From: a virus | Lineage: Duplodnaviria; Caudoviricetes | Virus record (IMG/VR): IMGVR_UViG_2576861548_000003 | Span: 45,909-109,908 of that record | Reading direction: 5' to 3' (one strand) | Length of the DNA stretch: 64,000 bases | In this document: in pieces, positions 5,791 through 46,000 of the stretch | How positions within the stretch are numbered: position 1 is the first letter of the stretch | Layout of the letters: each line of letters begins with the position of its first letter | Translations under genes and position numbers: made by a program | The notes under the pieces: generated by a model | Told to the model about the DNA's origin: nothing | Databases searched by the model: none | What the model saw: the letters and a program-made list of their open reading frames with translations, nothing else

Positions 5791-6543
5791 ATGCCGATAA
5801 GCGAAGTATGCAATATAGACCGAATGGATTTCTTAAAGAAATTCCCAGATAACTTCTTTGACTTGTTCATAGATGATCCACCATACGGAATTGGAGCGGA
5901 TAATCCTTCGATCAAGCCCAATACTGTAAAACAAAGTAATGGTAATATACTGTATGTTAAACAATCCGTTTATCCGAAATCAGACTGGGATTCACGAGTT
6001 CCCCCTCCAGAATATTTCGATGAAGTAAAAAGGGTTAGCCGAAATCAGATAATATGGGGAGTAAACTACTTTAATTACGACTTTACTGGTGGACGCATTG
6101 TTTGGGATAAGCTAAATGGTGATACTGACCAATACGATTGTGAAATAGCTTACTGCAGTATGAATGACAGAACCGACCTTATATATTGCATGTGGCGGGG
6201 AATGATTCAGGGAACCTATTGTGGAAAGGATTTATCTAAGGCAATTATCCAGCAAGGAAACAAAAAATTGAATGAAAAGCGGATTCATCCCTGCCAAAAG
6301 CCTGTGATTCTATATGGGTGGTTACTCAATCAATATGCCAACCCCGGTTATAAGATCGGTGATGCTCACATGGGTAGTCAAAGTAGCCGGATTGCAGCTT
6401 ACAAGCTAGGATTCGACTATTGGGGATGTGAAAAAGATAAGTTTCATTTCAAAGAAGGTAATTCTCGTTTCCGCTATGAATGCCACGGAGAAATAAAAAC
6501 AAATAAAGGGATTTTAGTGCAAACAAATCTATTTGACTTATAA
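5791..6543 (+). CDS. DNA N6-adenine/N4-cytosine methyltransferase (beta class)
   Basis: DPPY motif IV near the N-terminus, HPCQKP and DAHMGS motif I near the C-terminus. Confidence 0.9.
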   Translation: MPISEVCNIDRMDFLKKFPDNFFDLFIDDPPYGIGADNPSIKPNTVKQSNGNILYVKQSVYPKSDWDSRVPPPEYFDEVKRVSRNQIIWGVNYFNYDFTGGRIVWDKLNGDTDQYDCEIAYCSMNDRTDLIYCMWRGMIQGTYCGKDLSKAIIQQGNKKLNEKRIHPCQKPVILYGWLLNQYANPGYKIGDAHMGSQSSRIAAYKLGFDYWGCEKDKFHFKEGNSRFRYECHGEIKTNKGILVQTNLFDL

Positions 6544-7112: not shown

Positions 7113-7556
7113 ATGGAAATAAACTGTAAATACTGCCCTAAAAACGATGGTGCAGGGACGTGCAAAATAGATGACTGTCCTCTTCTTCCTATTATACAGG
7201 AAATAGAAAAAATGCAGTCATTCCTTGAAACAACCGCTAGTGATAACCCAAAAGAACTGATAGAACGTCTTACTGACATAAATGTCTACTTGGCCCGTTC
7301 AGGAAAACTCTTAGCTGATGCAAAAGCATATCAGGATCAAGTGACTGCAAATATATATTCGCAGCACATGGAGTTTATATCGCGGGTTCCGGCTACTGTT
7401 GCAATAAAGTTTGTTGCAGCCCAAAGTGTGACTGCTAATCAGTTGGTTGTATGGCTAGATCGCATAAATCGAACACTTGTTCATGCTGGAGATAATATAC
7501 GTACGCAGATATCCTTTGCAAAGCAGGACATGGCATTGCAAAGAAAGGGATATTGA
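7113..7556 (+). CDS. Hypothetical phage protein (Cys-rich N-terminus, helical)
   Basis: 147-aa ORF. Confidence 0.7.
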   Translation: MEINCKYCPKNDGAGTCKIDDCPLLPIIQEIEKMQSFLETTASDNPKELIERLTDINVYLARSGKLLADAKAYQDQVTANIYSQHMEFISRVPATVAIKFVAAQSVTANQLVVWLDRINRTLVHAGDNIRTQISFAKQDMALQRKGY

Positions 7557-7588
7557 AAAAACGTTAATCACGGAAAAATAACTGATTT

Positions 7589-7626
7589 AAAGTGATTGTT
7601 TTTACGTCACTTTTGTTTAGCTTTAC
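7589..7626 (+). promoter_or_regulatory. Phage operator-promoter unit AAAGTGR-N~9-GTCACTTTT + -7 box (copy upstream of rep)
   Basis: Same motif at 19147, 28404, 33819, 42959 and 47557. Confidence 0.65.
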
Positions 7627-7816
7627 ACCGTGAAAATAATGAATCATCTTAGTGGTGTTTGATGACAAAAGGATATTAAATAGGCTTTCTTGGAGTATAT
7701 ACCCTAAACACCACATCAAGGGTATAGAAACTCGAAAGCCTTCGCTTTTTATAGATGAATACAATAGGCATACATGGCAAATCCATTGGTTAATTTCTAA
7801 AATACTAGATTTAATT

Positions 7817-8800
7817 ATGTCGAGACCTAATAAGACAGGTTTGAGTTATTTCCCAATGGATGTTGATTTATTCCAAGACATACGAATAAGGAAACTAATC
7901 AAGTATCAGAGTGGCAAGGCTATAACAGTATATGCTCTCCTGCTATGTCTTATCTACCAGCGTGGGTACTACATGAGGTGGGATGAAGAGTTGCCCTTCA
8001 TTATATCGGAACAAACCGGGTTTGAAGAGGCGTATATACTGGAGGTCATCAGAAGCTGCATGACACTAGGGTTATTCTCCAAGAAACTGTATGATGACGA
8101 ACAAATCATTACGTCAAAAGGGATTCAAGAGCGATACCTGTATATATGTAAACTGCTCAAAAGAAGAGTGAGCATTACTGAATATTTGCTTATTGATGAA
8201 GAAAAGGAGCTTGTTACTTCTCAAGAAACCGGGGTTATTTCCGGAAAAACCCCGGTTATTTCCGAAGAAACTGCTTTAAATTCGGTGAAAATGCAACAAA
8301 AGAAAAGAAAGGAAAAGGAAATAAAAGAAATCTCTCTATTGAGAGATAAAGAAAAGTTTCCCCCTCCCGAGGTTGTAGACAAAACATTAAGCGAATGCTA
8401 TGATGAACTATCATGTGACAGAAGTTGGATTGAAATCGTAACGATGAATACACGTAATTCCGGTCATAAGGATTTTACGATAGACATGTTCGGAATGTAT
8501 TTAAAACGTTTTTTCGAGAAGCTCCAAAACGAGGGAGAGGTAAGAAAGTCTCCCAAGGATGCAAAATCGCATTTCTCCCGTTGGTTGAATATTGAACTGA
8601 AAAAGAAAGGCAATTATGAACCAAAACCAATTACCAACAACATCTACGAGCAGAAGCGAATTGATTCTGAGCGGAGAAAATCTAAACTCATGGCTGAGTT
8701 CGCAGAAGCGGACGCAAAATTCCTTGCAGAACAAGAAGCTAAACGAAAAGCAGTTGGCTTTATTGGAGAAATATCCGACACCTTCCCGGATGGCGGTTGA
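7817..8800 (+). CDS. Phage replication initiator (DUF4373/Lin1244-like N-terminal domain)
   Basis: MSRPNKTGLSYFPMDVD...ITSKGIQERY N-terminus, internal iterons, basic KKRKEKE linker; start 7817 preferred over 7652. Confidence 0.85.
   Translation: MSRPNKTGLSYFPMDVDLFQDIRIRKLIKYQSGKAITVYALLLCLIYQRGYYMRWDEELPFIISEQTGFEEAYILEVIRSCMTLGLFSKKLYDDEQIITSKGIQERYLYICKLLKRRVSITEYLLIDEEKELVTSQETGVISGKTPVISEETALNSVKMQQKKRKEKEIKEISLLRDKEKFPPPEVVDKTLSECYDELSCDRSWIEIVTMNTRNSGHKDFTIDMFGMYLKRFFEKLQNEGEVRKSPKDAKSHFSRWLNIELKKKGNYEPKPITNNIYEQKRIDSERRKSKLMAEFAEADAKFLAEQEAKRKAVGFIGEISDTFPDGG
8213..8296 (+). repeat. Four 21-bp iterons inside the rep gene (probable origin)
   Basis: gttacttctcaagaaaccggg / gttatttccggaaaaaccccg / gttatttccgaagaaactgct / ttaaattcggtgaaaatgcaa followed by an A-rich tract, as in lambda O. 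Confidence 0.75.
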
Positions 8801-18949: not shown

Positions 18950-19131
18950 AAACAACTGTAAAAGTGTATTTAAGAGATGAACAAGGTAATGAAGACTACT
19001 TCATTACTCCTATTAACTTATCAGAGCAAGAAGCTCACAAGTACTATCTCGGTAACATCTTCAATATGGGGTGCGAAACAGATCACATGATGAAATGCTA
19101 CAAAGTTGAGACAATAAAATCATCAAATTAG
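18946..19131 (+). CDS. Hypothetical protein
   Basis: 61 aa, AAGCAATG start context. Confidence 0.6.
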   Translation: MKTTVKVYLRDEQGNEDYFITPINLSEQEAHKYYLGNIFNMGCETDHMMKCYKVETIKSSN

Positions 19132-19200
19132 ATAAATTTATGACTAAAAGTGATTGTTTTTACTTCATATTTTGTATTTTTACACCATAAAATTAAAGCA

Positions 19201-19611
19201 ATGAGGATTTACACAAGTTATTTCGGGAATTACAGAAAACTAGCAGCTGCAAACGTAAAAATGATATGTGTTGCGCTAGGGAAGCCAAGATTTTATAATG
19301 CACCTCAGATCATAGAGGTGGCACCAAGAAGATACATGTTGGATGATAAATGGACTTATGAAGAGTACACGAATATGTATTTGAATGATGTCCTTGCAAA
19401 AGTCAATCCGCAAGAATTGATTCAAACTATCCAGCGACTCAGTGAAGACAAAGACGTCGCTCTCTGCTGTTACGAAAAACCGGGTGATTTCTGCCATCGT
19501 CATATTTTGGCAAAATGGCTTACCGAAAAGACTGGCATTGAAATAACAGAGTTCGGAGTAGTTGAAAGGAAAGAACCTAAATACGAACAAGCAAGTTTGT
19601 TTGAGATATGA
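19201..19611 (+). CDS. DUF488-family protein
   Basis: MRIYTSYF...VALCCYEKPGDFCHRH. Confidence 0.8.
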   Translation: MRIYTSYFGNYRKLAAANVKMICVALGKPRFYNAPQIIEVAPRRYMLDDKWTYEEYTNMYLNDVLAKVNPQELIQTIQRLSEDKDVALCCYEKPGDFCHRHILAKWLTEKTGIEITEFGVVERKEPKYEQASLFEI

Positions 19612-20009
19612 ACAGAGAAATAATATTCAGAGGGAAAAGCACAAATAATGGTAAATGGGTGTATGCAAAATTACATGGGTTTGGCATGGACTTATTTAAT
19701 GAGTGTGTACAGGAGAATACTGTTGGGCAGTTCACCGGCTTGCATGACAAGAACGGAAAAGAAATATATGAAGGTGACATTGTTGAACAAATAGTTACAA
19801 ATGGATACGGTTATGGTTTTATAGGTGAAGTAAGTTTTGATAACGGAGTTTTTGGTATAAAACATAAGACTTATAAAGGTTACATTGTATCTAGTTTTGT
19901 ATATTCCTCAGATTGGAATGATGGTCATGCGCACGGAACCGTTTTATATGAATATGAATTAAAAGGAAATATCTACGATAACCCAGAATTATTAACCAAC
20001 TATCAATAG
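19608..20009 (+). CDS. YopX-family protein (copy 2)
   Basis: Near-identical to 14663-15064. Confidence 0.9.
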   Translation: MNREIIFRGKSTNNGKWVYAKLHGFGMDLFNECVQENTVGQFTGLHDKNGKEIYEGDIVEQIVTNGYGYGFIGEVSFDNGVFGIKHKTYKGYIVSSFVYSSDWNDGHAHGTVLYEYELKGNIYDNPELLTNYQ

Positions 20010-20069
20010 CGTTTGATAGAATGCTGTCAGATTTGCCAAGCAAGCGGTGGTTTGACAGCATAGTTAAAA

Positions 20070-20142
20070 GGGAATTTAGCAAAGATGGTCTATGCGTCGG
20101 ACTAAAAATCCGAAGAACAAGGTTCGAATCCTTGAGTTCCCA
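20070..20142 (+). tRNA. tRNA-Phe with AAA anticodon
   Basis: Acceptor GGGAATT/AGTTCCC, anticodon arm TCGGA-CTAAAAA-TCCGA, T-arm CAAGG-TTCGAAT-CCTTG. Confidence 0.8.
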
Positions 20143-20155
20143 CAGTCTTGTATCA

Positions 20156-20336
20156 ATGAACGCACCACTCTATCCGAATTGAAGACGGGCGTCGGGTCTG
20201 TCTGAAGATAGGAAAGCCGATAGAGTAGCAGATAGAAAGGGGAAGGGTAAATCCGAAATAAGTCCCAGAGAGTATCTATCAAGGTGGATTCCCACAAAAT
20301 CATGTGGCAGTTGACGGTGACGACATGGCGGTTCAT
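20156..20336 (+). ncRNA. Unidentified ~180-nt structured RNA
   Basis: Closing ATGAAC/GTTCAT, internal ACTCTATC/GATAGAGT, TCGG/CCGA, AGATA/TATCT and CCACA/TGTGG helices; no credible ORF. Confidence 0.5.
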
Positions 20337-20367
20337 AATGTTGGCAGCTTGGAATAGACAAGCATTT

Positions 20368-20437
20368 GCGGAAATAGCTCATCGGTAGAGCGTTGGCATT
20401 CCAGCCAAAGAGTGGGGTTCGATTCCCTGTTTCCGCT
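20368..20437 (+). tRNA. Atypical tRNA-Gly(TCC)-like
   Basis: GCGGAAA/TTTCCGC+T73, D-arm GCTC/GAGC, T-loop TTCGATT; anticodon arm TTGGC-ATTCCA-GCCAA (6- or 8-nt loop). Confidence 0.7.
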
Positions 20438-20511
20438 CTAATGCCGTTAAACTCGGCTCGTTGATTGAGGTTGTGTAAAGTAAGCGACAAGGTTCGATTC
20501 CTTGCATTTAG
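20438..20511 (+). ncRNA. tRNA-like element without a normal anticodon loop
   Basis: Perfect T-arm CAAGG-TTCGATT-CCTTG, GCCG/CGGC hairpin, TCGTT/AGCGA stem around a 20-nt loop, imperfect acceptor CTAATG/CATTTAG. Confidence 0.4.
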
Positions 20512-20556
20512 TTGGTACTGCAAACAATCTGACAGCGTGGAAAGACACGCAAATTT

Positions 20557-20712
20557 GGTAGTATGGCGGAATTGGTAGACGCTGACAACTCTTAGTAGAC
20601 TTGGTTACGATGTTATGAAAACTGGGCATCATTGTAAAACGAACCAATCCAGTGTTACACGGAAGATGTAGAAGATTGCCAAGCATTGCAGGTTCGAGTT
20701 CTGCTGCTACCT
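20557..20712 (+). tRNA. tRNA-Leu-like RNA with a ~105-nt structured insert in place of the anticodon/variable arms
   Basis: Acceptor GGTAGTA/TGCTACC, Leu-type D-arm TGGCGGAATTGGTAGACGC, T-arm GCAGG-TTCGAGT-TCTGC. Confidence 0.6.
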
Positions 20713-20739
20713 CAACCCTTATAGTAGCGATAAGCAAAA

Positions 20740-20834
20740 GCAAGAACATTAAAGCTTGTACAGTTTACGGGGTGATGGAAATTGCCATCTGACACGACTG
20801 AAAGAAGCCGAATAAATTGCATAGGTGTTCTTGC
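20740..20834 (+). ncRNA. Unidentified ~95-nt structured RNA
   Basis: GCAAGAACAT/GTGTTCTTGC, TGTACAGTTTA/TAAATTGCATA, CGG/CCG and GATGG/CCATC nested helices. Confidence 0.5.
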
Positions 20835-20867
20835 AAATAGCTTGAAGAATAGTTAGATTTGTGTTAA

Positions 20868-20897
20868 GCCTGCCGGGAATACGCCCGGTAGGCATTT
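20868..20897 (+). terminator. GC-rich hairpin closing the RNA cluster
   Basis: GCCTGCCGGG-AATACG-CCCGGTAGGC-ATTT; U-tract is weak. Confidence 0.55.
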
Positions 20898-20936
20898 AGT
20901 GCAAAATGTATATGAAGTTATATACAACTTAAATAT

Positions 20937-21836
20937 ATGAACGATAAAGGACTAATAAGAGCATGTGAAAACTCCGGCTGTGGTTGGAAGTGTTGTTCGT
21001 TCGGATCAGACGGACATATTGTAATTTTGCCCCATGAATTTGACGGGCATGAAAAAGAAATCTCCCATTTACAGATTATAGACGATGATTACTTTGGCGG
21101 TAAAAAGGTAAAATGTATCGCTAAAGATTGCAAATCATGTGACAATGGTTACAAGCCTATTATGTGTCGTACTTATCCTTTGTGGGTAAAATCAGTGAAA
21201 AAAAGTTTTGTGTTTCGTAGTGGTAAGTGTCCGCTAAATAATGAACAACTTGCTAAACATAAGGAGTTTGTATTAGACATTTTCAACAATTACAGAAAAG
21301 TGCTGTTGCCTGAAAATGATATAGACACATTCCTTTCAAAAGCATGGATTGACCGTTACGAACCGCTGTTCCCAATAAAGAAGGAAAGCACAGAGTACAA
21401 GATGCAGGTCAAATCTTTATCTATGTCTGATATATCAGATATTGAAAAGATGGAGCAGACGCTTCTTCGCAATCCAGATATGTGTTTCGCATCAGAGCCG
21501 GAAGACATAGCCAAATGCTTGGAATCAGGTTGCAGTTATGGGTTATTCGTAAATGACAAACTGGCTGCCTATTCTCTTGCATACTTCACAGAATACGGTA
21601 CTGCCTATGTGGATAAATGCTTTGTTCATTCTGATTACAGAGGGAATGGATTCCAATACGTACTTCTCAATTCTAATATTGCTAAATTAATATCTAATGG
21701 GGTCCAGGAAATCTATGCCATGGTCTCACCGAAAAATGAAGCAAGTATCAAGAGTTTCATTAATGCAGGATTTTCTTTTAAACGAGATAGCAAATACAAA
21801 GAGATTGAACGTTTAATCTTAAAGTGGGAACTATGA
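20937..21836 (+). CDS. Cys-cluster (YkgJ-like) domain fused to a GNAT acyltransferase
   Basis: CENSGCGWKCC...KPIMCRTYP N-domain; C-domain FVHSDYRGNGFQ (acyl-CoA motif A) and NEASIKSFINAGF. Confidence 0.8.
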   Translation: MNDKGLIRACENSGCGWKCCSFGSDGHIVILPHEFDGHEKEISHLQIIDDDYFGGKKVKCIAKDCKSCDNGYKPIMCRTYPLWVKSVKKSFVFRSGKCPLNNEQLAKHKEFVLDIFNNYRKVLLPENDIDTFLSKAWIDRYEPLFPIKKESTEYKMQVKSLSMSDISDIEKMEQTLLRNPDMCFASEPEDIAKCLESGCSYGLFVNDKLAAYSLAYFTEYGTAYVDKCFVHSDYRGNGFQYVLLNSNIAKLISNGVQEIYAMVSPKNEASIKSFINAGFSFKRDSKYKEIERLILKWEL

Positions 21837-22711
21837 AAGTTGTTGTCTATACCAAGAATATAATAGAGAACATTGAAAAGGCGCAAAGCTTTATTAATGT
21901 TCCTATCTCGTTAATGTTCAAAGATTTCTACGAGGATATTTATGGACATATCGCGGATAAAATAAACAATAAGATTTTTGGGCTTCATTTAAAAGATAGT
22001 ATATGTTATTCTATTGGCAAAGCGACAAAAGATAATAGTGGTGCCGTGGTGACATCATTTACTGATGTTTGGCAATATCTTAATATCAATGGTATCGCAT
22101 GTCAAGGAATACATAATTTCTACATTCCGATTAATGCTTGTGATGATAGAGAAGGTTTAAGTTGTTATGAAGCAAGTAAGTTGGCCAATGAAATAAGAAT
22201 GATTTCAAGCTCCCATATATATGGCTTGATTACTTCTGGATGTCTGAATGAAAACCATCCCTCGGAAAAAGAATTGTACCGTATTTGGAAAAGCCTACGC
22301 GATAATATTGAATCTATTAGTTTGGGTGGTAGCTTTTGGCTTGGACAAGAAACTAAGATCCCAGAATTCACAAGCGATGTTCGTATTGGTGAATATATGC
22401 TGTTTGGCACAATCCCATATTGTGATTATGAGGTGAGAAAAGGTCTTAATGGCATAGAAATCGAAACAAGGGTTATAGGTATTTACCCAGAACGTAATCA
22501 ATTGATTTTGGATTGTGGCTATTCAATGGTAGACTTAGATAAGTGTCAAATTAGTGATTGTACCAATTTGAAGTTTGTAGATAGTTCTAGTGAATACTCA
22601 ATTATGGAGTGTGACCATGTCTCAGATTATTGCATTGGTGATGTGGTTACGTTTGTTCCCAATTATAAATCATTAGTCAAGTTGAGATATGCAGAACATG
22701 AATATAGATAA
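21833..22711 (+). CDS. PLP-dependent alanine/ornithine racemase-family protein
   Basis: N-terminal MFK (putative PLP lysine), DDREG, ISLGGS, VRIGEYMLFG, SSSEY and IGDVVTFVPNY parallel ornithine racemase motifs; ATGA overlap with the previous gene. Confidence 0.75.
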   Translation: MKVVVYTKNIIENIEKAQSFINVPISLMFKDFYEDIYGHIADKINNKIFGLHLKDSICYSIGKATKDNSGAVVTSFTDVWQYLNINGIACQGIHNFYIPINACDDREGLSCYEASKLANEIRMISSSHIYGLITSGCLNENHPSEKELYRIWKSLRDNIESISLGGSFWLGQETKIPEFTSDVRIGEYMLFGTIPYCDYEVRKGLNGIEIETRVIGIYPERNQLILDCGYSMVDLDKCQISDCTNLKFVDSSSEYSIMECDHVSDYCIGDVVTFVPNYKSLVKLRYAEHEYR

Positions 22712-24776
22712 ACCTTGGATTGATTATATATCCAATCGTACATTTGGCATGGAACTGGAGTTTGCCGATGGTGACAAACAACGCATCCCGCTTCCATCCG
22801 GTTACAAGTGGACGGACAACAAGTTGACCATGATGAACAATTCGGATGGTTCGGCAGTTACGCATCACGGCCAGTTCGGTGGTGAGATAAACACCCGTCC
22901 ATACCATTACTGCGCTGAAGACCTTCAGGAGTTGAAAGACTTCATTCATACCATGAAAGATGCGGGAAGCTATCTTATGTGGAATGAAGGCTTTGATGCG
23001 CATCTGTACATCAAGGATATGGACCTGGATGTTATCAAGCGTATGTTTGTCCTCTCTTATTATACTGCATATCCAATCAAACGGATATTTGATATTGCGG
23101 AGTGGTGGGAAACAAAATATCTCGTACCAAGCCCTCCTTGGGATGTAGTGAAGCGTGTATTGGAAGCAGATACTATTGAGAATCTACTGAAAGTTTTTAG
23201 CAATGGTTCAGATCGAGGACACATCCGGTACTGGCTTAATTTATGTTCTATTGAAAAGATAGGAACGGCAGAATTTAGGATCTTCAATAGCTCCTGGGAT
23301 TTCGATAAAATACTGGAAACAATCAAATTCATGTATTCGTTTGTGGAGTACGCCTACCTGCATGAAGATATGGAAGAGTATAAGCAACTCACCACAATTG
23401 ATAGGTGCCTTGAAGTGTTCAATATAGACTATTCTAAGGTTCCCCAAAGACATAAACCGTTACTTTGGGCAGCAGAACACTCGGATAATGTTACAATAGT
23501 AGGCTCCATGTTTAAGAAATCCAACCGTATGCTTTCCTTTATCAAGAAAGAGGCTTCCAAATTCGATGTAGCCCATGTGGTAAACTCGTATTATATGGAT
23601 ATAGAGCAAATACTTACCAACCGTGAGATTAAGGTGTATACAAAGGAGTATTTTATCTACATGATGTATAAGGCAATCAAGGGAGAGATAAAAGAACTGC
23701 GCTTTAATGAAGAATATGAGTTTCTAAGTATTAAATCTGAAAATCCTGCTGAAATTATTGCCACTATTCACCTTTTTAATGCCATCAAAAAGCATAAGAA
23801 TTCACAGGATATTTATCACAAATCGCTTTATGACGATTTTATGGCAAAGTTAGAGCATTACCATAAGAAGTATACGGAACGTTATCAAAAGCTAGTAGAT
23901 AACCTTAAAAGTAAGTCTATTGAAGTGCTTTATTGTGCTGATATATCGGATGCGATTCTTAACTGTAAAGAGGATGATATACTAATCTATCAGAATGAAT
24001 TTCATTCCGGAATGAAAGCTACGAGTAACGCATTGCAACGTTTCTTATTGGATGATTTTGGATCTCAAGAAAGAACTAAAACGAAATATGCAGAAATAGA
24101 TGAAGAACAAGTTAATTACATGGCTCTCTCGCAGCATGGATTTATGGGCAGAAGAGAGGTATTCAAAGACCAACGCACATATATTTGGTCTAATGTGGTA
24201 GAAAGCGGAGATAGTAGCTTTAACAAGCGAACTATCGTTCCTTTAAAATATAAACGGCTTCCGGATGATTATATGCTTACGGATAAAAGCAAACTCCGGT
24301 TTGTACGTGCTTCTATGGCAGAGATTGATTATCTGCGTATGATTTACTTGAAAAAGGGTATTCTCCTCGGTTCTGCACCATTCTGTTACTTATGGTTCTT
24401 GGATGATTATGTGTTTGGGGCTTGTATGTTTGATTTCCTGAAGGTAAGCAAATACGGCATGGATGCAGTTTGGATGAAGTCGGATTTCGTGATAGACCAT
24501 CCATTGCCCAAATTGAGTAGATTGCTAATTATGGGTGTACTTTCGTCAGAGTTCAAAGATGAATTGGACATAAGATATAAACATGAATGTGGAGTGATTG
24601 CTACTTCTGTATTTACCGATAAACCGGTAAGTATGAAGTATCGGGGAGTGTTTAAACTGCATGAACGCTGTGTTGGTAAACTCCATTACATACAAGATGC
24701 AGGCATTCGTGGCAACTTAGATGATATTTTAAAAGATTTTGTGAAAAAATACGGTGATGAGCCGAGAAAGGAATAA
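22689..24776 (+). CDS. Amidoligase-2 (COOH-NH2 ligase) domain fused to a degenerate methyltransferase-like domain and a C-terminal Mom-like GNAT domain
   Basis: RTFGMELE..DGS..GEINT..AHLY..RYWLN..GTAEFRIF; C-terminal KSDFVI..KLSRLL..TSVFTDKPVSMKYRGVF typical of phage ParB-linked DNA-modification proteins. Confidence 0.75.
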   Translation: MQNMNIDKPWIDYISNRTFGMELEFADGDKQRIPLPSGYKWTDNKLTMMNNSDGSAVTHHGQFGGEINTRPYHYCAEDLQELKDFIHTMKDAGSYLMWNEGFDAHLYIKDMDLDVIKRMFVLSYYTAYPIKRIFDIAEWWETKYLVPSPPWDVVKRVLEADTIENLLKVFSNGSDRGHIRYWLNLCSIEKIGTAEFRIFNSSWDFDKILETIKFMYSFVEYAYLHEDMEEYKQLTTIDRCLEVFNIDYSKVPQRHKPLLWAAEHSDNVTIVGSMFKKSNRMLSFIKKEASKFDVAHVVNSYYMDIEQILTNREIKVYTKEYFIYMMYKAIKGEIKELRFNEEYEFLSIKSENPAEIIATIHLFNAIKKHKNSQDIYHKSLYDDFMAKLEHYHKKYTERYQKLVDNLKSKSIEVLYCADISDAILNCKEDDILIYQNEFHSGMKATSNALQRFLLDDFGSQERTKTKYAEIDEEQVNYMALSQHGFMGRREVFKDQRTYIWSNVVESGDSSFNKRTIVPLKYKRLPDDYMLTDKSKLRFVRASMAEIDYLRMIYLKKGILLGSAPFCYLWFLDDYVFGACMFDFLKVSKYGMDAVWMKSDFVIDHPLPKLSRLLIMGVLSSEFKDELDIRYKHECGVIATSVFTDKPVSMKYRGVFKLHERCVGKLHYIQDAGIRGNLDDILKDFVKKYGDEPRKE

Positions 24777-24779
24777 TAT

Positions 24780-25481
24780 ATGGGAAAATTCAAGATAGCG
24801 GAAGTGCAATTATCTGACATTAAACTGGTCAAGAAAAATGCGCATTTCATGCAGCAGGACACGTTTAATGCCTTAGTGAATAACATTCGTAGAGACGGTC
24901 AATTATCGTCTGTACCATTCTGTGTAAAGCATTCGGATGGCTCTTATACGGTGGTGAGTGGTAATCACCGAACACAAGCGGCAAAAATGGCTGGGCTTAC
25001 TTCCATCCATGTTATGTACATAGATGAAGAGGAGACTACAAACGATTGGTTGCTGGCAACACAATTGTCACATAACAGTATAGTTGGGCAAGACGATGCG
25101 GAGATTTTGAAGCAATTGCTTGATGAAATAACAGATGTCGCACTGAAAGAATATGCGCATATCAGTAATGAAGTTCTGGAAAGTGTGAAGGACATTAACT
25201 ATACGGTTGAAATGCCGAATAATGAAATCGTCCCGGTAACTCTTATGTTTGTTGATACGCAGAAAACCGCATTCGATAAGTTGATGGAAACATTGGATTG
25301 CTATTCTGAAAAAGAACTTGGCAATCTTACTTTGGTAGATATGGATACAATGCACCGGTTGAATGAAGTATCGGCTAAAGTACAAGCCAAGTATAAAATC
25401 AAGGCCCAGGCTTTGAGTATTTGCAAAATGTTGGAAATTGTAAATAATGTATTGGAGGGTAATGCGGATGGAGAAAGATAG
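24780..25481 (+). CDS. ParB/Srx N-terminal domain protein
   Basis: KNAHFM..LVNNIRRDG..VVSGNHRTQAA. Confidence 0.85.
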   Translation: MGKFKIAEVQLSDIKLVKKNAHFMQQDTFNALVNNIRRDGQLSSVPFCVKHSDGSYTVVSGNHRTQAAKMAGLTSIHVMYIDEEETTNDWLLATQLSHNSIVGQDDAEILKQLLDEITDVALKEYAHISNEVLESVKDINYTVEMPNNEIVPVTLMFVDTQKTAFDKLMETLDCYSEKELGNLTLVDMDTMHRLNEVSAKVQAKYKIKAQALSICKMLEIVNNVLEGNADGER

Positions 25482-25839
25482 AAAATACAGGTTGAATACA
25501 AGGCAAAAGAAAACATTGTTTCTAAAAGCCCTTGATGCAAGACTTCTTAATGTGACGAAAGCATGCGAGGCCGCAAGTATATGTCGTTCTCTTGCTTATA
25601 AATGGAGAGAAAATGACCCCGAGTTTAAAGCGAAATGGGAAGAGGTTGAAGAAGCGTTCAAAGACAAAATAGAAACGTGTATGTTCACAAAAGCTATTAC
25701 GGAACAGGACAATACTATGCTTATTTGGCTAAGTAAAACTAAGCTTCGTGATAGAGGCTACGTAGAAAAGATTGAACAGGATTTGAACGTGAACCCGTTT
25801 GAAAAACTTATGCAGGAATTGCCAGATGATGAAGAATGA
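25468..25839 (+). CDS. Terminase small subunit
   Basis: HTH-like NVTKACEAASICRSLAYKWRENDPEF, RDRGY; immediately upstream of TerL. Confidence 0.75.
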   Translation: MEKDRKYRLNTRQKKTLFLKALDARLLNVTKACEAASICRSLAYKWRENDPEFKAKWEEVEEAFKDKIETCMFTKAITEQDNTMLIWLSKTKLRDRGYVEKIEQDLNVNPFEKLMQELPDDEE

Positions 25840-27350
25840 CAATAGCAGATGAAAAATCTTTGCGGAAAATCAAATCATGGACAGAAGACTGGAATAGGTT
25901 TGTGCGTGATGCTCTTAAAGCTCGTTTGGATAAGGAGCAACAGGATATTATTTCATCTGTGCAGTACAATCCTATGACAGCTGTTGCATCGGGAACAGCT
26001 CGTGGTAAGGACTTCGTGGCGGCCTGTGCATCTTTGTGTTTCATGTATCTTACTCCTCGTTGGAAAGATGGGAAGTTGACTAAAAACACTAAAATTGCTA
26101 TGACAGCGCCTACCGCTCGTCAAGTACAAAATATTATGATTCCGGAAATCTCACGTTTATACAGGAATGCAGGTTTCCTTCCGGGAAGATTGTTGTCGTC
26201 AGGTATAAAGACTGATTACGAAGAGTGGTTCCTGACGGGGTTTAAGGCGGGTGATGATAACACCGAAGCATGGTCCGGTTTTCACGCTGTAAATACGATG
26301 TTTGTTGTTACCGAAGCTTCTGGTATTTCTGAATCAACGTATAACGCCATTGAAGGTAACTTACAAGGTAATTCTCGTTTGCTTATCGTGTTTAATCCGA
26401 ATGTTACTACCGGTTATGCCGCACGCGCTATGAAGTCGGAGCGTTTTGCAAAATTTCGTTTGGATTCTCTTAATGCGGAGAATGTGGTATCTAAGAAAGC
26501 TGTAATTCCAGGACAGGTAAACTACGAGTGGGTTAAGGATAAAGTTGAGAATTGGTGTTCTCTGTTACAGAAAGCAGATTTCAATGAGGGAGAGGGAGAT
26601 TTTACATGGGAAGGTAAGTTATATCGTCCAAATGATCTTTTCCGTGTCAAGGTCAGAGGTATGTTCCCTAAAGTTTCCGAGGATGTACTTATACCTTATG
26701 AATGGATAGAAATAGCAAACAGAAATTGGCAGGAATTACAGGCAAGCGGCTTCATTCCATCCAAATCGTGCAAGTTAGGTGTTGACGTGGCTGGTATGGG
26801 ACGCGACAATAGTGTACTTTGTCCTCGATATGGTAACTATGTGGCGCAATTTGAAGTACATCAATCCGCTGGTCGAGCAGACCATATGCATGTAGTCGGT
26901 ATGGCGATACCCTATTTGAAGAAGAGGGGAGCTAAAGCATTTATTGATACGATAGGAGAGGGGGCAGGTGTTTATTCCCGCTTGTTAGAAGAAGAATTTA
27001 CAAATGCTTTTTCATGTAAATATTCAGAAGGTGCGGATGGATTGCATGATATTACCGGAGAATATGAATTTGCCAATATGCGCGCATATTTGTATTGGGC
27101 TTTGCGCGACTGGCTCAATCCTAAAAATGGATTTGGTGCAGCTTTACCTCCATGTGACCAGTTAATGGAAGAAGCGACTGAAACTAAATGGAAGTTTCTC
27201 AGTAATGGAAAGATTATCATTGAGGCTAAAGAAGACATAAAAAAACGTATCAAGCGTTCTCCTGACTATATGGATGCATTAGCGAATACATTTTATCCTA
27301 GGGATTACAGCTTTATTAGCGATGAAGAGCTGCTCAAAGATTTTTTGTAG
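25836..27350 (+). CDS. Terminase large subunit
   Basis: Walker A-like SGTARGKD, VVTEASG, FNPN coupling motif, LGVDVAG nuclease motif, SPDYMDAL. Confidence 0.92.
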   Translation: MTIADEKSLRKIKSWTEDWNRFVRDALKARLDKEQQDIISSVQYNPMTAVASGTARGKDFVAACASLCFMYLTPRWKDGKLTKNTKIAMTAPTARQVQNIMIPEISRLYRNAGFLPGRLLSSGIKTDYEEWFLTGFKAGDDNTEAWSGFHAVNTMFVVTEASGISESTYNAIEGNLQGNSRLLIVFNPNVTTGYAARAMKSERFAKFRLDSLNAENVVSKKAVIPGQVNYEWVKDKVENWCSLLQKADFNEGEGDFTWEGKLYRPNDLFRVKVRGMFPKVSEDVLIPYEWIEIANRNWQELQASGFIPSKSCKLGVDVAGMGRDNSVLCPRYGNYVAQFEVHQSAGRADHMHVVGMAIPYLKKRGAKAFIDTIGEGAGVYSRLLEEEFTNAFSCKYSEGADGLHDITGEYEFANMRAYLYWALRDWLNPKNGFGAALPPCDQLMEEATETKWKFLSNGKIIIEAKEDIKKRIKRSPDYMDALANTFYPRDYSFISDEELLKDFL

Positions 27351-27377: not shown

Positions 27378-27446
27378 CGAAAACACTTCTTTTGTGTTTT
27401 CATTGCTCTTATGTGCACTGGCTTGTGAAAGTCGGTGCCATTTTTG
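27378..27446 (+). ncRNA. Candidate trans-acting antisense sRNA
   Basis: -7 box TACCTTTG (27366-27373), 5' hairpin GAAAACAC/GTGTTTTC, seed TGTTTTCATTGCTCTTAT, terminator GCACTGGCT-TGTGAA-AGTCGGTGC-CATTTTT. Confidence 0.65.
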
Positions 27447-30349: not shown

Positions 30350-30718
30350 ATGAAGACAAAAATATCAAACTGGCTTATTAGATTAGCAGAAAAAATCAAT
30401 CCACAAGAAAGATTGAGCAGTATTGAACGAGTTGATAACTACGAAGCAAAGAAGCTTGGTATCTGCCTTGCCAGAACTAAAAAAGAAATCAAGGATTACC
30501 GGAAAAAGAAGAAACTTGATGAAGGGTGGTCCAATCGTAAAGCCGATGAAATGCTTATCAGAGAACTTAAGAACGAAGTGCGCCAGTCAATCAACAACTC
30601 TATCAACCAAAGAGGGTTGGTTGAATACTCCGTTGAAAAGGTTGGTGACGAACTTCATGTTACCGGTGAAATCAAAGTCTATATCAAAAAAGAATCACAT
30701 GAAAGTTCCAATAGATGA
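30350..30718 (+). CDS. Hypothetical protein
   Basis: 122-aa ORF. Confidence 0.6.
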   Translation: MKTKISNWLIRLAEKINPQERLSSIERVDNYEAKKLGICLARTKKEIKDYRKKKKLDEGWSNRKADEMLIRELKNEVRQSINNSINQRGLVEYSVEKVGDELHVTGEIKVYIKKESHESSNR

Positions 30719-31061
30719 AATGACGTTTGCCGAAAGCGAATATCATAGAGGTAACAAAATATGGAATGCCCAAACGTTATACGATTTTGCTAAGGCAAAA
30801 GAGTATCCAGTTATGGATATGCCACTTTGGTGCATTGATTTGACTACTGAAGCATTTGAATGCAGCCAACTTCATAGTTTCATATTCCAATGCAAGCGGG
30901 TTCGTAACTGTTCGCTTGATTATCCTATCATATTAGATGAAGTTGGCCAAATTGCTGATGGCTATCATCGTTTATGCAAAGCTATATTAGAGGGTAAGGA
31001 GACAATTAAAGCTATTCGGTTATTGGAAATGCCGGCACCTGATAGGATTGAGGAGGAATAA
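30699..31061 (+). CDS. ParB/Srx-like small protein
   Basis: YPIILDEVGQIADGYHRLCKA; start 30699 preferred over 30423. Confidence 0.75.
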   Translation: MKVPIDEMTFAESEYHRGNKIWNAQTLYDFAKAKEYPVMDMPLWCIDLTTEAFECSQLHSFIFQCKRVRNCSLDYPIILDEVGQIADGYHRLCKAILEGKETIKAIRLLEMPAPDRIEEE

Positions 31062-38695: not shown

Positions 38696-38766
38696 GCGGA
38701 GATGGTGTAATGGTTGCATATATATCATCCAGATATCAGGTTACGGTTCAAGTCCGTATCTCCGCT
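38696..38766 (+). tRNA. Second atypical tRNA-Gly(TCC)-like gene
   Basis: GCGGAGA/TCTCCGC+T73, D-arm GTGT/GCAT, T-arm TACGG-TTCAAGT-CCGTA, anticodon loop CATCCAG (A instead of U33). Confidence 0.7.
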
Positions 38767-38843
38767 CTGTTTTTTGAGAATCTGATTTGTTGTTCATAAT
38801 TTAATGTCGGTTGTCTGTGAAGATAGCCGATAAAAAATAATTG

Positions 38844-43039: not shown

Positions 43040-46000
43040 ATGGCTGGATTACACTTCGACATAACCGGTGACAACTCCAACTTTATACGTAAACTTCATG
43101 AGTGTGAAAATGGAGTAAAAAACACATCCCGACAAATAGAACAAAGTGGGTTAGGTATAGAAGATTTATTTAACCGTATGACTAAAGCTGCTGCCGCATT
43201 CGGAGTTGGTTTCACTGCGAAAGAATTAATTTCAAATATAGCACATGTTCGCGGCGAGTTTCAACAATTGGAAGTTGCATTTAAGACAATGCTTGGTAGC
43301 GAAGATAAAGCTAATGCTCTTATGCAACAGTTGGTCAAAACAGCTGCTACTACACCATTTGATTTGCAAGGAGTTGCAAATGGAGCCAAACAGCTTCTTG
43401 CTTACGGAGAAAACGTTGAGAATGTCAATGATGATTTGATACGTCTTGGGAATATAGCAGCAGGTCTTTCTCAGCCGCTTGGTGATATTGTGTATTTGTA
43501 CGGTACTACCATGACGCAAGGACGGTTATACACGGCGGATTTAAACCAATTTACTGGCCGTGGTATCCCTATGATTCGCGAATTAGCAAAAGTATTTGGT
43601 GTCGCTGAAGGGAAAGTAAAAGGTTTGGTTGAAGCAGGGAGGGTTGGTTTTCCTGAAGTGCAGAAAGTTATCCAGAATCTTACAAATGAAGGTGGAATGT
43701 TTTTCAACTTGATGCAGGAACAATCTAAAACGATTGCTGGTCAGATTTCAAATATTGAAGATGCAATTGCTACTATGTTCAATGAAATTGGTAAAGCCAA
43801 TGAAGGTATTATCAATGATGCTTTGTCTGGGGTTTCTTATCTGGTTGAAAACTACGAAAAGGTAGGAGCTCTTTTATTAGAAATAGTAGGAACTTATGGA
43901 GTATACCGTACAGCCCTTATGGCTACGACTGCATTGCAGGCTTTGCAAGCTTCCGGTATAACTGCTTTAACGGCGAAAGAAGCTATTCATTATGGGTGGT
44001 TAGTGCTTACGAAGAAAGCTCAAGATGCCTTAAATTTATCCATGCTTAAAAATCCTTATATATTGGTTGCTGCATCTATTGCAGGATTGGTTTATGGTAT
44101 ATATAAATTTGCTACAGCAGAAAGTGATACGGAACAAGCAATTCGTAAAACGAACGATGCACTTGAGGCACAAAATAATCATTATGAAGAGTTGAAAAAT
44201 AAGGCAAGTCAACTCTCTAATATTTTAAGTGATGAATCTAAATCTATAGAAGAGCGTTTCATTGCATATCGTAAACTTCAGCGTTTAATGCCAGAAGTTT
44301 TTAAAGATATGGATTGGGAAGCAGCTAAACGGAAAACAAATGCTGAGCTTACAAAACTTGAGAATGATGAACTTTTAAGACAGCAACGTATTGGGCTAAA
44401 AACAAAGGTTGTAATGTCTCAACAAAAAATACAGGGGCTAAGGAGTAGCTTAATAAAAACTCAAAATGCTGGTGGGTATACTGGGGCATTAAAGGAAGAT
44501 TTAGCTGCTGCTGAAAAAGAATTGGAAATATATCAAGAGGCCCTTAAGGCTTTTGAGGAAGCCAAAGAAGAATCGAAAAAAGCTAAAAATGCTCCAACTG
44601 TACAAGACAAAGAATATTGGGAGAATCAAAAAAAAGAAGCTGAAAATGCCTTAGAATCTATTGCATCTTCTCAAAAGAGATTGTTGGACGCTGGTAACTT
44701 TAAAGGTATAGATACTGCTGTTGTAAAGAGTTACAAGGATAATGTTAAAAAGCTAAAGGAGGCTGAAAAAGAACTGAAGGTTTATGACACCTCTTCCAAA
44801 CAGGAATCTGCTGCTGAAAAACTTCGCAAACAGCAAGAAGGCATTCGTTCCCAGAATGATAAGATCTCTGAAATAGAACGCAAACAGGCAATCCAGCGTA
44901 AAAGGCAGGCTGAAGATATGGAAATGGAAATCTCACAGTCTGAGATCAATGCCATGGCTGATGGATCTGAGAAAAAACGTATGCAGAGGGAATTGGATAA
45001 CCGGAAAGAGATCCAATCACTGGAAAGGCAAAAAGAAGATATGATCCAGGCTGTAATTCAAGCTGAGAAAGAGATTTTTGATGCTCAGGAAGAGTTGAAG
45101 GTTAAAGAGAATAACAAATATCAGAAAAAGACTTTTGATTCTTCTAAGGTGGATACAGAGAAGATTAGCTCTATCTGGGATACCATTATAGGGAACACGT
45201 CTAGAAAGCAACTTGATGATAAAATACGCGAACAAGAGGCGTCTTGGAACGAATATCTTATCAAGTTTGGCAACTATCAACAGAAAAGGCTGGCCATTAT
45301 TGAGAAATATGATAGGGCCATAAAGGAGGCCGAAACGGCGGGGGATGTAGCTATCTTGATGAAAGAGAAAGCTAATGCGCTTGATGATTTTGACAACTCC
45401 GTAAAGAATAGTACAACCTTAATGGGGCAGCTCTTTGCTGATGCTTCCCAAAAGAGTGTGAACGAGATTCAGTCCATCATTGCAAAAGCCGAATTATTGA
45501 TGCAATACCTTGGTGCCGTTAAGGATGAACAGGGAAATGCTCAAATCGGTGGAAAGACAGTTTCAAAGAAGGATATTTTAGGTCTTGGGATAAGTGACAA
45601 TACCCTTCAAAATTTAGAACTTTCAACCGAGCAAACAGAGGCACTAAGAAATGCTATTGGTCGTTTAAAAGAGGAATTGGGAGCAAAGAGTCCTTTTGCG
45701 CTTTTCAAAAAGCAAGTAAAAGAAGCGGCAGGTGAAATAGCGAAAGGAGGTCAGGAAAATATTGCTCGAGGGATTGCAGGGATCGGAAGTGCTATTGTTC
45801 AATTTACTCCTGCTATATCTCAGTTTGGTCAGGATCTTGGTACAATATTTGGCAACGACGATCTTGGTAATAAAATAGCTGGTATTTCTGATGCGTTAGG
45901 TGGAGTTGGCCAAACAGCCATGGGAGTTGGCCAGATAATGTCTGGTGATATTGTAGGTGGTGCTATGAGTGCTGTTTCCGGTATTTCATCAGTTGTAAAG

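Follow-up and report, generated by a model that had tools for sequence, protein, structure and literature searches.

Gene Content of the Locus

The stretch of DNA analyzed here, referred to as the window, comprises 64,000 nucleotides (positions 45,909 to 109,908) of the 109.9-kb IMG/VR provirus record IMGVR_UViG_2576861548_000003 (Duplodnaviria; Caudoviricetes), has a G+C content of about 34–44% and belongs to a gut-type prophage. Directly upstream of its terminase genes lie four genes, designated A to D, that are predicted to form a cassette for the hypermodification of phage DNA: a fusion of a Cys-rich domain with a GNAT domain (A), a pyridoxal phosphate (PLP)-dependent enzyme (B), a three-domain amidoligase/Dam-fold/GNAT fusion (C), and a short protein with a ParB N-terminal domain (D; Table 1). 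An earlier note on this DNA, made from the sequence alone, had described the four as overlapping or abutting and as running into terS and terL; the open reading frames (ORFs) and phrog matches agree, with terS overlapping the 3′ end of the cassette in gene D and terL in turn overlapping terS. Its account of the contents was correct for these four genes but overlooked two upstream members, a DUF488 gene and a tRNA-Gly-like gene. A YopX gene and the tRNA genes lie between the DUF488 gene and gene A.

A gene-neighborhood survey, among the checks suggested in the earlier note, showed that the order A-B-C-D-terS-terL is kept across 72 close viral loci, with A and B each present in 71/72 and D, terS, and terL likewise in 71/72, the misses being loci truncated at contig ends; chance does not account for this order.

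Table 1. Features of the cassette and its flanks, in positions of the window.
Feature	Position	Strand	Basis and remarks
DUF488 (N3a subclade) gene	19201..19611	+	PF22751 and phrog_2450; upstream cassette member; homologs begin at ATG 19201, longest ORF starts at 19150
tRNA-Phe, anticodon AAA	20070-20143		ARAGORN
tRNA-Gly-like gene, 6-nt anticodon loop	20368..20438	+	ARAGORN, Rfam tRNA model
Gene A (299 aa)	20937-21836	+	ORF list
Gene A, Cys-rich N-terminal domain	20937..21386	+	Motifs C-x5-C-x3-CC ... C-x2-C ... C-R-T-Y-P
Gene A, C-terminal GNAT acetyltransferase domain	21430..21836	+	PF00583, phrog_1249
Gene B, fold-type III PLP enzyme (by model)	21833..22711	+	292 aa from ATG 21833, where homologs begin (ATGA overlap with the stop of A); longest ORF 21824-22711; K30 codon at 21920-21922
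Gene C (695 aa)	22689-24776	+	Three-domain fusion
Gene C domain 1, Amidoligase_2	22689..23438	+	PF12224, YbdK-like fold
Gene C domain 2, Dam-fold domain	23508..24200	+	Structural match to 2ore_D; YQNEF at 23988-24002
Gene C domain 3, GNAT-phage-like	24276..24776	+	PF22559; invariant S-D-F and S-M-K-Y-R-G
Gene D, short ParB-N-domain protein (233 aa)	24780-25481	+	PF02195, phrog_7405; motifs S-G-N-H-R, Q-L-S-H-N-S
terS	25447-25839	+	phrog_4044, 2.9e-11
terL	25836-27350	+	phrog_2, 2.8e-28
Terminator-like hairpin past terL	27415-27438		First such hairpin after the cassette

Contigs of four metatranscriptome runs (three studies) span 19100-25500, and for runs X6 and X7 a single 7,786-nt contig covers 19862-25500 with 2 differences from the window; being assembled and possibly derived from library DNA, these contigs show neither transcription nor its strand or level, nor base modification. 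Promoter-like sites in the window numbered 29, with 29.7 expected from shuffled sequences, i.e., without excess. PADLOC matched A, B, and C to no defense system and gave one weak match for D (E 0.0016).

Domain Architecture of Protein C

Pfam searches of protein C returned Amidoligase_2 (PF12224; 32.4 bits, cut-off 22) and GNAT-phage-like (PF22559; 90.8 bits, cut-off 27, E 1.1e-25), together with DAM-like-phage1 (PF22555) at 22.4 bits, under its cut-off of 27. NCBIfam gave no match for C, and a search of PDB sequences yielded nothing meaningful, its one hit being a ribosomal protein at E 0.47. The model of C, built from a 52-sequence alignment with a predicted local distance difference test (pLDDT) score of 89.7, splits into three parts, and structural comparison of these returned a glutamine synthetase (GS)/YbdK-like fold, a Dam fold, and a GNAT fold, in keeping with the three domains that had been read from the sequence.

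Residues 1-250 were aligned by VIA-align to glutamine synthetase 8fbp_V with Z 11.2, a root-mean-square deviation (rmsd) of 3.5 and 200 aligned residues, and to YbdK (1r8g/1tt4) with Z 10.7-11.0. Seven residues of this part, E22, E24, E66, H105, R180, E195, and R197, are invariant in the 52 sequences and are presumably catalytic. Judging from the model, and with a Pfam score above the Amidoligase_2 cut-off, domain 1 is a GS/YbdK-like carboxylate-amine ligase, so that the intact amidoligase-2 domain proposed earlier is upheld.

Residues 274-504 aligned with E. coli Dam 2ore_D (VIA-align Z 10.9, rmsd 4.0, 169 aligned), Foldseek paired C with Dam 2g1p_B at probability 0.98, and relatives of C match PF22555 or PF22556. 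Methyltransferases of this fold were judged by motif IV, (D/N/S)PP(Y/F/W), and by the glycine-rich motif I that binds S-adenosylmethionine (AdoMet). The YQNEF of C (residues 434-438), said in the earlier note to stand where PPY/PPF is expected, does align at the place of Dam motif IV, where relatives consisting of the Dam-like and GNAT domains only (two-domain relatives) have (L/P/A)P(T/F/S)Y and other three-domain proteins have FQQEY and the like. None of 19 two-domain relatives carries a [DNS]PP[YFWH] motif, and just 4/19 carry an [FVIL]xGxG string, without a common position. Because a DPPY-type motif is absent from every relative checked, the Dam-like domain is best regarded as a long-standing non-catalytic part of the family; the earlier proposal that a methylase had been inactivated and replaced in this lineage therefore fails, the loss being ancient, and a reading of the domain as a recent pseudogene was rejected on the same family-wide loss. 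With motifs I and IV lost, no methyl transfer is expected from C, and the Dam-fold domain would now recognize DNA and flip out a base for the fused GNAT domain.

PF22559 matches all 24 family GNAT domains searched (best E 1.5e-61). The DKPVSMKYRG stretch to which the note had drawn attention contains PVSMKYRG (residues 646-653), the most conserved motif of the C family, and S-D-F and S-M-K-Y-R-G are invariant in the PF22559 domains aligned. In the aligned GNAT domain of C, no glycine-rich coenzyme A (CoA)-type loop was seen past strand 4, in contrast to the R-G-N-G-F stretch of protein A. The PHROG matched by C, at its C-terminal end, is phrog_2443 ("amidoligase enzyme").

Family Distribution and the ParB and DUF488 Partners

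The architecture of C is common to 82 protein clusters (25-99% identity, about 670-695 residues), and its relatives are encoded in at least 475 IMG/VR stretches and in 132 stretches of a collection in which 185,579 species have one genome each; many of the family phages are of gut Bacteroidota type. The loci surveyed were chosen by score, not randomly. A motif search with the SMKYRG block recovered 80 genome loci from many phyla, 13 of which (L074-L085 and L146) encode the amidoligase fusion, the rest encoding a DAM-like + GNAT-phage-like protein of about 440 residues, such as that of L100 (PF22555 8.7e-89, PF22559 1.4e-60); a homolog of D adjoins the gene in 80/80. Among cultured phages, Gordonia phage Sting has a two-domain gp28 (annotated "DNA methyltransferase") followed by gp29 ("ParB-like nuclease domain"), and Mycobacterium phage Megabear has a two-domain gp70 followed by gp71, annotated as hypothetical, where Sting has the ParB-like gene. 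In L146 (7989-10019) the fusion is split into two ORFs inside the amidoligase part, and the match to C in L064 and L065 is interrupted roughly two thirds of the way along.

Protein D matches PF02195 (ParB_N) at 26.7 bits (cut-off 26.3) and phrog_7405 at 2.8e-57. Against canonical ParB (TIGR00180) it reaches 34.6 bits, under the cut-off of 58.45, and only the ParB N-terminal domain was detected. For ParB counts the survey comprised 233 loci (the window region plus 232), of which the 228 with at least 1.5 kb downstream could be assessed: a ParB homolog lies within 1.5 kb of the C-type gene in 228/228, directly downstream in 225, which extends the ParB link drawn in the earlier note to every assessable locus. 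A canonical partition role was rejected for D, given the score under the TIGR00180 cut-off and the constant pairing with a GNAT-type gene. As a separate observation, the translation of a window ORF in the structural region (30423-31061) has a D-G-Y-H-R stretch, which we take to resemble ParB/sulfiredoxin-fold proteins; the ORF would then be a second ParB-like gene in this phage.

The DUF488 gene was identified by PF22751 (E 3e-10; 40.9 bits, cut-off 27) and phrog_2450 (1.5e-37). A DUF488 homolog lies upstream on the same strand in 156/165 loci with the amidoligase fusion (the amidoligase clade) and anywhere in the locus in 40/68 two-domain loci. Its comparison with PDB sequences gave nothing meaningful, and the ESM Atlas returned just clusters of the DUF488 N3 subclade. 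Within the amidoligase clade, terS and terL come right after the cassette.

The tRNA-Gly-Like Gene

The tRNA-Gly-like gene scores 53.0 bits with the Rfam tRNA model (cut-off 29, E 2.5e-10) and is labeled tRNA-?(Glu|Gly)(tc) by ARAGORN. Its transcript would form a cloverleaf whose anticodon loop has six nucleotides, AUUCCA, including the letters UCC, and not the usual seven; it retains G1-C72, C2-G71, G3-C70, and U73, and its first two T-stem pairs are wobble pairs. The identity set of bacterial glycyl-tRNA synthetase (GlyRS) consists of G1-C72, C2-G71, G3-C70, U73, C35, and C36; T-stem pairs tune binding to elongation factor Tu (EF-Tu), and an anticodon loop of six nucleotides would hardly restore decoding.

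This odd tRNA is found just upstream of A in 20/21 close loci scanned, in which tRNA-Phe, -Ser, and -Cys vary. Distant loci of the amidoligase clade, with C proteins 23-36% identical to that of the window, have one or two tRNA-Gly genes (UCC, CCC, ACC, GCC) or 6-nt-loop forms between the DUF488 gene and C. Among the amidoligase-clade loci with at least 2.6 kb upstream (157), a same-strand tRNA lies upstream in 131, and all 131 include a Gly-type tRNA. The acceptor set G1-C72, C2-G71, G3-C70, U73 is kept in 59/63 unique Gly-type sequences; the anticodon loop has six nucleotides in 25 of the 63, position 33 is A or G in 6, and position 34 is A in 9. Within the 6-nt-loop class, compensatory double changes occur at 13/21 stem positions, and in 20-21 of 23 unique tRNAs the T-stem begins with the pairs U.G and G.U. 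In L128, L100, and L147, which fall outside the amidoligase clade, a tRNA-Gly(UCC) is found close to the gene, and in phage Megabear a tRNA-Gly(tcc) abuts the two-domain gene.

These tRNAs bear on the identity of the donor. It is possible, though unlikely, that DNA is modified from acyl-CoA, or from an acyl-phosphate/acyl intermediate that the amidoligase makes out of a free amino acid prepared by A and B, and not from a charged tRNA, the tRNA genes being an ordinary island. A fusion of ligase and transferase would be well placed to pass an activated acyl group on directly, and sequence homology is lacking between C and Mom, the one GNAT known to modify DNA in a tRNA-dependent way; moreover, 10/18 amidoligase and 29/30 two-domain clusters are without a Gly-type tRNA within 2.6 kb upstream, and tRNA-Phe, -Cys, and -Ser share the upstream region in some loci. 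However, the Gly type is the constant one in the tRNA-bearing loci while the others come and go, and the combination of odd anticodon loops, kept acceptor features, and compensatory stem changes is hard to explain for tRNAs serving translation only. The lack of a visible CoA-type loop in the GNAT domain of C also speaks against acyl-CoA, and loci without a private tRNA could use host Gly-tRNA, as Mu does (PMC13219725, cited here and below from part of its text).

Several further observations concern tRNA genes. The tRNA-Phe of the window has the anticodon AAA, where all 39 related loci carrying this tRNA have GAA, and position 20104, its first anticodon base, is G in contigs of two RNA-library runs; the AAA is a single-base variant of the record or a sequencing error. 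A second tRNA-Gly(UCC) lies at 38696-38767, about 18 kb downstream in a gap between plus-strand genes, with A33 in place of U33 and the loop CAUCCAG, which also occurs in the cassette tRNAs of L075, L174, and L181/L182. Between the odd tRNA and gene A, 20439-20936 is free of ORFs and has T-arm-like GGTTCGA sequences around positions 20490 and 20690, where ARAGORN and Rfam call no tRNA. Lastly, L206 has a tRNA with anticodon ACG (5805-5878; tRNA-Arg according to ARAGORN) where sister loci have tRNA-Gly(ACC), a one-base anticodon change.

Genes A and B and the Exchangeable Tailoring Slots

The Cys-cluster-GNAT fusion described earlier for gene A was recovered by Pfam, with PF00583 at residues 185-274 (E 2.3e-7) behind the Cys-rich N-terminal part, and by phrog_1249 ("acetyltransferase", 1.4e-6). 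The GNAT domain bears an R-G-N-G-F stretch (residues 235-239), which we take to be the canonical GNAT CoA-binding motif; PDB sequences gave only weak GNAT matches (E>=0.06). The Cys-rich domain of the window's A had no Pfam match at E<=5, and PF03692 (YkgJ/CxxCxxCC) had 0 matches at E<=5 for six Cys-rich domain sequences, one of which, from a relative, matched DUF3109 under the cut-off. The only lead for this domain came from the ESM Atlas, in PF03692-bearing clusters (score 0.91, 18-30% of members with PF03692), and it is possibly of the YkgJ/CxxCxxCC type. It forms a separate ORF in L156-L158 and L176 and is fused to GNAT in L160 and L175, in the latter with a further NlpC/P60 domain.

A canonical GNAT beside tRNA genes could also mean that the cassette acts on tRNA or translation, by acetylating or otherwise blocking glycyl-tRNA in the manner of GNAT toxins like TacT, or by supplying tRNA variants that resist anticodon nucleases of the host. 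We consider this very unlikely. It would leave the Dam-fold domain, the ParB partner, and the link to terminase unexplained; A is missing from most clusters that keep C, ParB, and tRNA; and a 6-nt anticodon loop is a poor candidate for restored decoding. In its support, many cassette tRNAs have altered anticodon loops, the neighboring tRNA-Phe has an unusual AAA anticodon, and TacT acts on Gly-tRNA-Gly (PMC13219725).

The only Pfam match of protein B is to PF14031 (D-ser_dehydrat C-domain; E 4e-5), and its best match among PDB sequences covers 29 residues of D-serine dehydratase at E 0.15. Its model (pLDDT 95.6, built on 43 sequences) matches 263 PDB structures at E<=0.001 in Foldseek, with chicken D-serine dehydratase (3anv) at the top (E 5e-13, template-modeling score normalized by query 0.71), followed by D-threo-3-hydroxyaspartate dehydratase, D-threonine aldolases, alanine racemases, lysine racemase, and YhfX. 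The modeled structure places B as a compact fold-type III PLP-dependent enzyme of the alanine/ornithine-racemase-like superfamily. K30 (numbered from the ATG) aligns with the lysine of longer racemase-like homologs and, together with R106, C137, S163, R184, and Y278, is invariant in 43 aligned sequences, in agreement with the putative PLP lysine named in the earlier note. Against the ornithine racemase Orr (NF040742), B gave a local 26.4 bits over residues 226-287, with a cut-off of 480. On the model, racemase, dehydratase, and aldolase types all lie near B and no single reaction is singled out; the D-amino-acid adduct suggested at first is thus among the chemistries that such an enzyme allows, but is one of several.

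The B family is small, with 62 representatives at E<=0.001 among 1.84 billion and proteins of about 285 residues, and far more variable than C, with identities of 51-100% in close loci vs 78-100% for C. In loci where B falls to 51-65%, C keeps 78-97%, and in L008 the identities to the window are 85% for A, 56% for B, 97% for C, and 97% for D. Either recombinational exchange of the PLP enzyme alone or its fast divergence seems to lie behind this pattern, and low identity of B beside a conserved C fits diversification of the adduct. Across L002-L073 (B at about 7136-8000 in locus coordinates), alleles of B fall at roughly 100, 95, 88, 80, 65, and 56-60% identity to that of the window, in cassettes with C and D at 89-100%.

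Exchange of the genes around C was also seen in the contents of the slot upstream of it. The window's type, Cys domain + GNAT + PLP, occupies the slot in 73 loci (4 clusters); GNAT + PLP was found in 8 loci (4 clusters), PLP alone in 4 (3 clusters), nothing in 24 (7 clusters), and an enzyme of the octopine/nopaline-dehydrogenase family (PF02317, E 6e-29 to 3e-27) in 47 (1 cluster). Gene A is absent from most clusters that keep C, ParB, and tRNA. Relatives have a second slot, absent from the window, between ParB and terS. It is occupied either by D-Ala-D-Ala-ligase-like ATP-grasp enzymes (one or two; PF07478, E down to 6e-22) or by an AlaDH/PNT-like enzyme (10/10 proteins in 9 loci). The slot enzymes all act on amino-acid amines or carboxylates. 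An opine-dehydrogenase gene was also noted between terS and terL in L177 (9996-11222). In Clostridium clostridioforme prophages, phrog_2443 genes are listed beside a gamma-glutamyl cyclotransferase gene (PMC11318856), possibly a further tailoring partner that would point to gamma-glutamyl chemistry.

The slot enzymes raise the question of whether DNA is the target at all. That the acceptor is instead a peptide, a protein, or a peptidoglycan precursor, reached by Fem-like tRNA-dependent transfer, appears quite improbable, in that the transferase invariably comes as a fusion with a Dam-fold domain and has a ParB-N protein as its constant partner, both DNA-associated modules, and the cassette sits inside the packaging operon. 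In such a scheme the amidoligase, the racemase-like and D-Ala-D-Ala-ligase-like enzymes, and NlpC/P60 would assemble or remodel a peptide, e.g., on a virion or packaging protein or on the cell wall of the host. Staphylococcal FemXAB do use Gly-tRNA, including non-proteinogenic tRNA-Gly species, but Fem proteins have paired GNAT domains, whereas C has one. Points in favor of a peptide or cell-wall target are that B is racemase-like, that relatives carry the PF07478 ATP-grasp enzymes and an NlpC/P60 domain, and that an action on peptides or on the cell wall has been suggested for phage amidoligases (Iyer et al., 2009, via PMC11318856, from part of its text).

Comparison with Known Systems

Among systems in which GNAT-fold transferases use Gly-tRNA outside translation, the staphylococcal FemXAB share with the cassette a dedicated tRNA-Gly, in their case one ill-adapted to EF-Tu binding and ribosomal use. 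Fem proteins act on lipid II and have two GNAT domains, and their tRNAs are cellular, whereas the tRNAs here are phage genes, with the wobble T-stem pairs of the 6-nt-loop class described above.

Phage loci that combine ParB, methylase, and terminase genes were reportedly treated by Iyer and colleagues in 2013. Such ParB-Tls loci are predicted to modify DNA at packaging (PMC4738411, from part of its text), and they resemble the cassette in having a ParB-like gene and a gene of adenine-methylase fold adjoining the terminase genes; they differ in that the methylase fold of C is without motifs I and IV and would serve the fused acyltransferase. A short phage ParB homolog that has no obvious DNA-binding domain, ParB176, is required by the thymine dioxygenase 5mYOX176 on double-stranded DNA (PMC13229309, likewise from part of its text). 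Here too, a short ParB homolog (D) stands beside a candidate base-modifying enzyme (C); the partner of ParB176 is an Fe/2-oxoglutarate dioxygenase, however, and activation of C by D is suggested by analogy.

In the thymidine hypermodification clusters of phages M6, ViI, and PaMx11, glycine or serine is attached to the base after replication and then processed by PLP enzymes and a GNAT, with gene sets that are combinatorial in metaviromes and include amidoligase genes (Lee et al., 2021; PMC8989533, in the part of the text available). The addition of an amino acid to DNA, followed by PLP/GNAT tailoring with combinatorial gene sets, is the likeness to the pathway proposed here. In contrast, these clusters start from 5-hydroxymethyl-deoxyuridine, employ a DNA kinase and transferases of the aGPT-Pplase type, and have PLP enzymes that are decarboxylases of another fold (tryptophan-synthase-beta-like, ViI gp226). 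No kinase/aGPT-Pplase genes of the 5-hydroxymethyl-deoxyuridine type were seen among the window ORFs scanned against Pfam.

Another close parallel is Mom of phage Mu, which transfers glycine from Gly-tRNA-Gly to N6 of adenine, thereby evading restriction; the N6-glycyl adduct then rearranges, and activity needs the catalytic residues R111, S124, D149, and R151 and an insert resembling a helix-turn-helix (HTH) (Silva et al., 2026; PMC13219725). Both are phage proteins with a GNAT fold; Mom acts late on double-stranded DNA, and C is surrounded by DNA-linked genes and neighbored by Gly-type tRNA genes. Unlike C, to which it shows no sequence homology, Mom is a single stand-alone protein with its HTH-like insert. 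The GNAT of C is fused to a dead Dam fold and, in this clade, to an amidoligase, always has a ParB partner and often DUF488, and is accompanied by a private odd tRNA and exchangeable tailoring enzymes.

Among the literature within reach, which excluded subscription journals and supplements (e.g., the Mom homolog network of PMC13219725 and the ParB fusion tables of PMC12704722), no paper was found that treats PF22559/PF22555 proteins, their association with ParB and DUF488, or the tRNA link. The family names turned up in a single marine-virome preprint, which lists phrog_2443.

Proposed Pathway

On the observed gene order, domain folds, conserved residues, and co-occurrence statistics, the reading that we favor, with modest confidence, is that the cassette carries out a late, ParB-assisted hypermodification of phage DNA, probably on adenine, that is primed by tRNA-borne glycine and then tailored. 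The system would be of the kind known as phage post-replicative DNA hypermodification with amino acids, the modified base being predicted from sequence and by analogy. In essence, the earlier idea of an amino-acid-derived adduct, built by a cassette linked to packaging and probably placed on DNA, is retained, and the Dam fold, the ParB partner, the terminase neighbors, and the swapped tailoring enzymes all point that way.

The following course of events is envisaged, in the manner of Mu Mom but with tailoring added. In the steps common to the whole family, which would fall in the late phase, D would load C onto double-stranded DNA or activate it there, with an accessory role for DUF488. The dead Dam-derived domain of C would find the base, probably adenine, and flip it out, and the PF22559 GNAT domain would transfer an activated acyl or aminoacyl group to it. 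In the amidoligase clade, the donor would be glycine on the phage tRNA-Gly-like RNA, which is seemingly unfit for decoding. The fused ATP-dependent amidoligase could then engage the glycyl amine or a carboxylate in another amide bond, on DNA or on the tRNA, and this bond would also stop a rearrangement of the Mom type. In the lineage of the window, B may epimerize or reshape the added amino acid and A may cap its free amine with acetyl. The product would be a bulky peptide-like adduct that shields the packaged DNA from host nucleases.

Several results weigh against this pathway. First, the resemblance to Mom is confined to structure. Mom 8bv8_A is the top VIA-align match of residues 530-673 of C (Z 11.4, rmsd 3.0, 138 aligned), but it is tied within 1 Z with ordinary GNATs, e.g., 1y9k_D at Z 10.8, and comes only at rank 7 in the Foldseek search with the model of C (E 2.2e-3). 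PF25680, the Mom family, matched 0/24 family GNAT domains at E<=1 and did not match C itself at E<=0.1, with Mu Mom scoring 2.4e-75 as positive control; a profile of the 24 domains matched no PDB sequence at E<=10; and hhalign gave the family profile a probability of 0.2% with Mu Mom, in a non-significant alignment that does not pair R111, S124, D149, and R151. As the likeness of the GNAT domain is one of fold and context only, C is not filed as a member of the Mom family, and the label "Mom-like" used in the earlier note stands for fold and context but not for sequence homology. Second, N6-acyl groups on adenine are reported to be unstable (PMC13219725), and the racemase-like, D-Ala-D-Ala-ligase-like, and NlpC/P60 enzymes of the family are also typical of peptidoglycan and peptide metabolism. 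In addition, none of 15 tblastn matches in a cultured-phage collection covers at least 80% of C, i.e., the collection held no three-domain fusion.

The tRNA association is subject to similar reservations. The raw locus counts owe most of their weight to two clusters (74 and 64 loci), and with clustering at 60% identity a Gly-type tRNA accompanies 8/18 amidoligase clusters (9 with L174, in which the tRNA overlaps the longest-ORF start) and 1/30 two-domain clusters. The same upstream region also holds tRNA-Phe (28 occurrences), tRNA-Cys (20), and tRNA-Ser (2), and thus is partly a tRNA island. Furthermore, an RNA-library contig of a relative (X18) joins 20130 to 20701, skipping the tRNA.

The contrast between the clades is itself suggestive. 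A private tRNA in 8-9 of 18 amidoligase clusters but 1/30 two-domain clusters suggests that the tRNA is needed because the glycyl-tRNA itself is modified, and, with the private tRNA accompanying the amidoligase clade far more than the two-domain clade, part of the assembly may occur on the tRNA. As a tentative extension of the pathway, the private tRNA-Gly might serve as a carrier arm that is loaded by the host GlyRS yet unusable by the ribosome. The glycine would be extended by an amide bond, epimerized, and N-acetylated on the tRNA or right after transfer, and the product would be placed on adenine while the DNA is packaged, giving peptidyl-adenine bases that vary among relatives.

Implications for Phage DNA Modification

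If the favored pathway is correct, protein C and its relatives would join Mom as a second family of enzymes that modify DNA in a tRNA-dependent way, with an independent origin, and would provide the first case of a tRNA dedicated to a non-translational role and of an adduct extended in a peptide-like manner. The exchangeable tailoring genes would provide a natural series from which to learn how adducts are diversified, and the ParB partner and DUF488 would offer a way into the roles of the many orphan phage ParB and DUF488 proteins. Since the family is common and many of its members are gut phages, new DNA bases could be common across gut viromes, with consequences for restriction, sequencing, and the engineering of phages.

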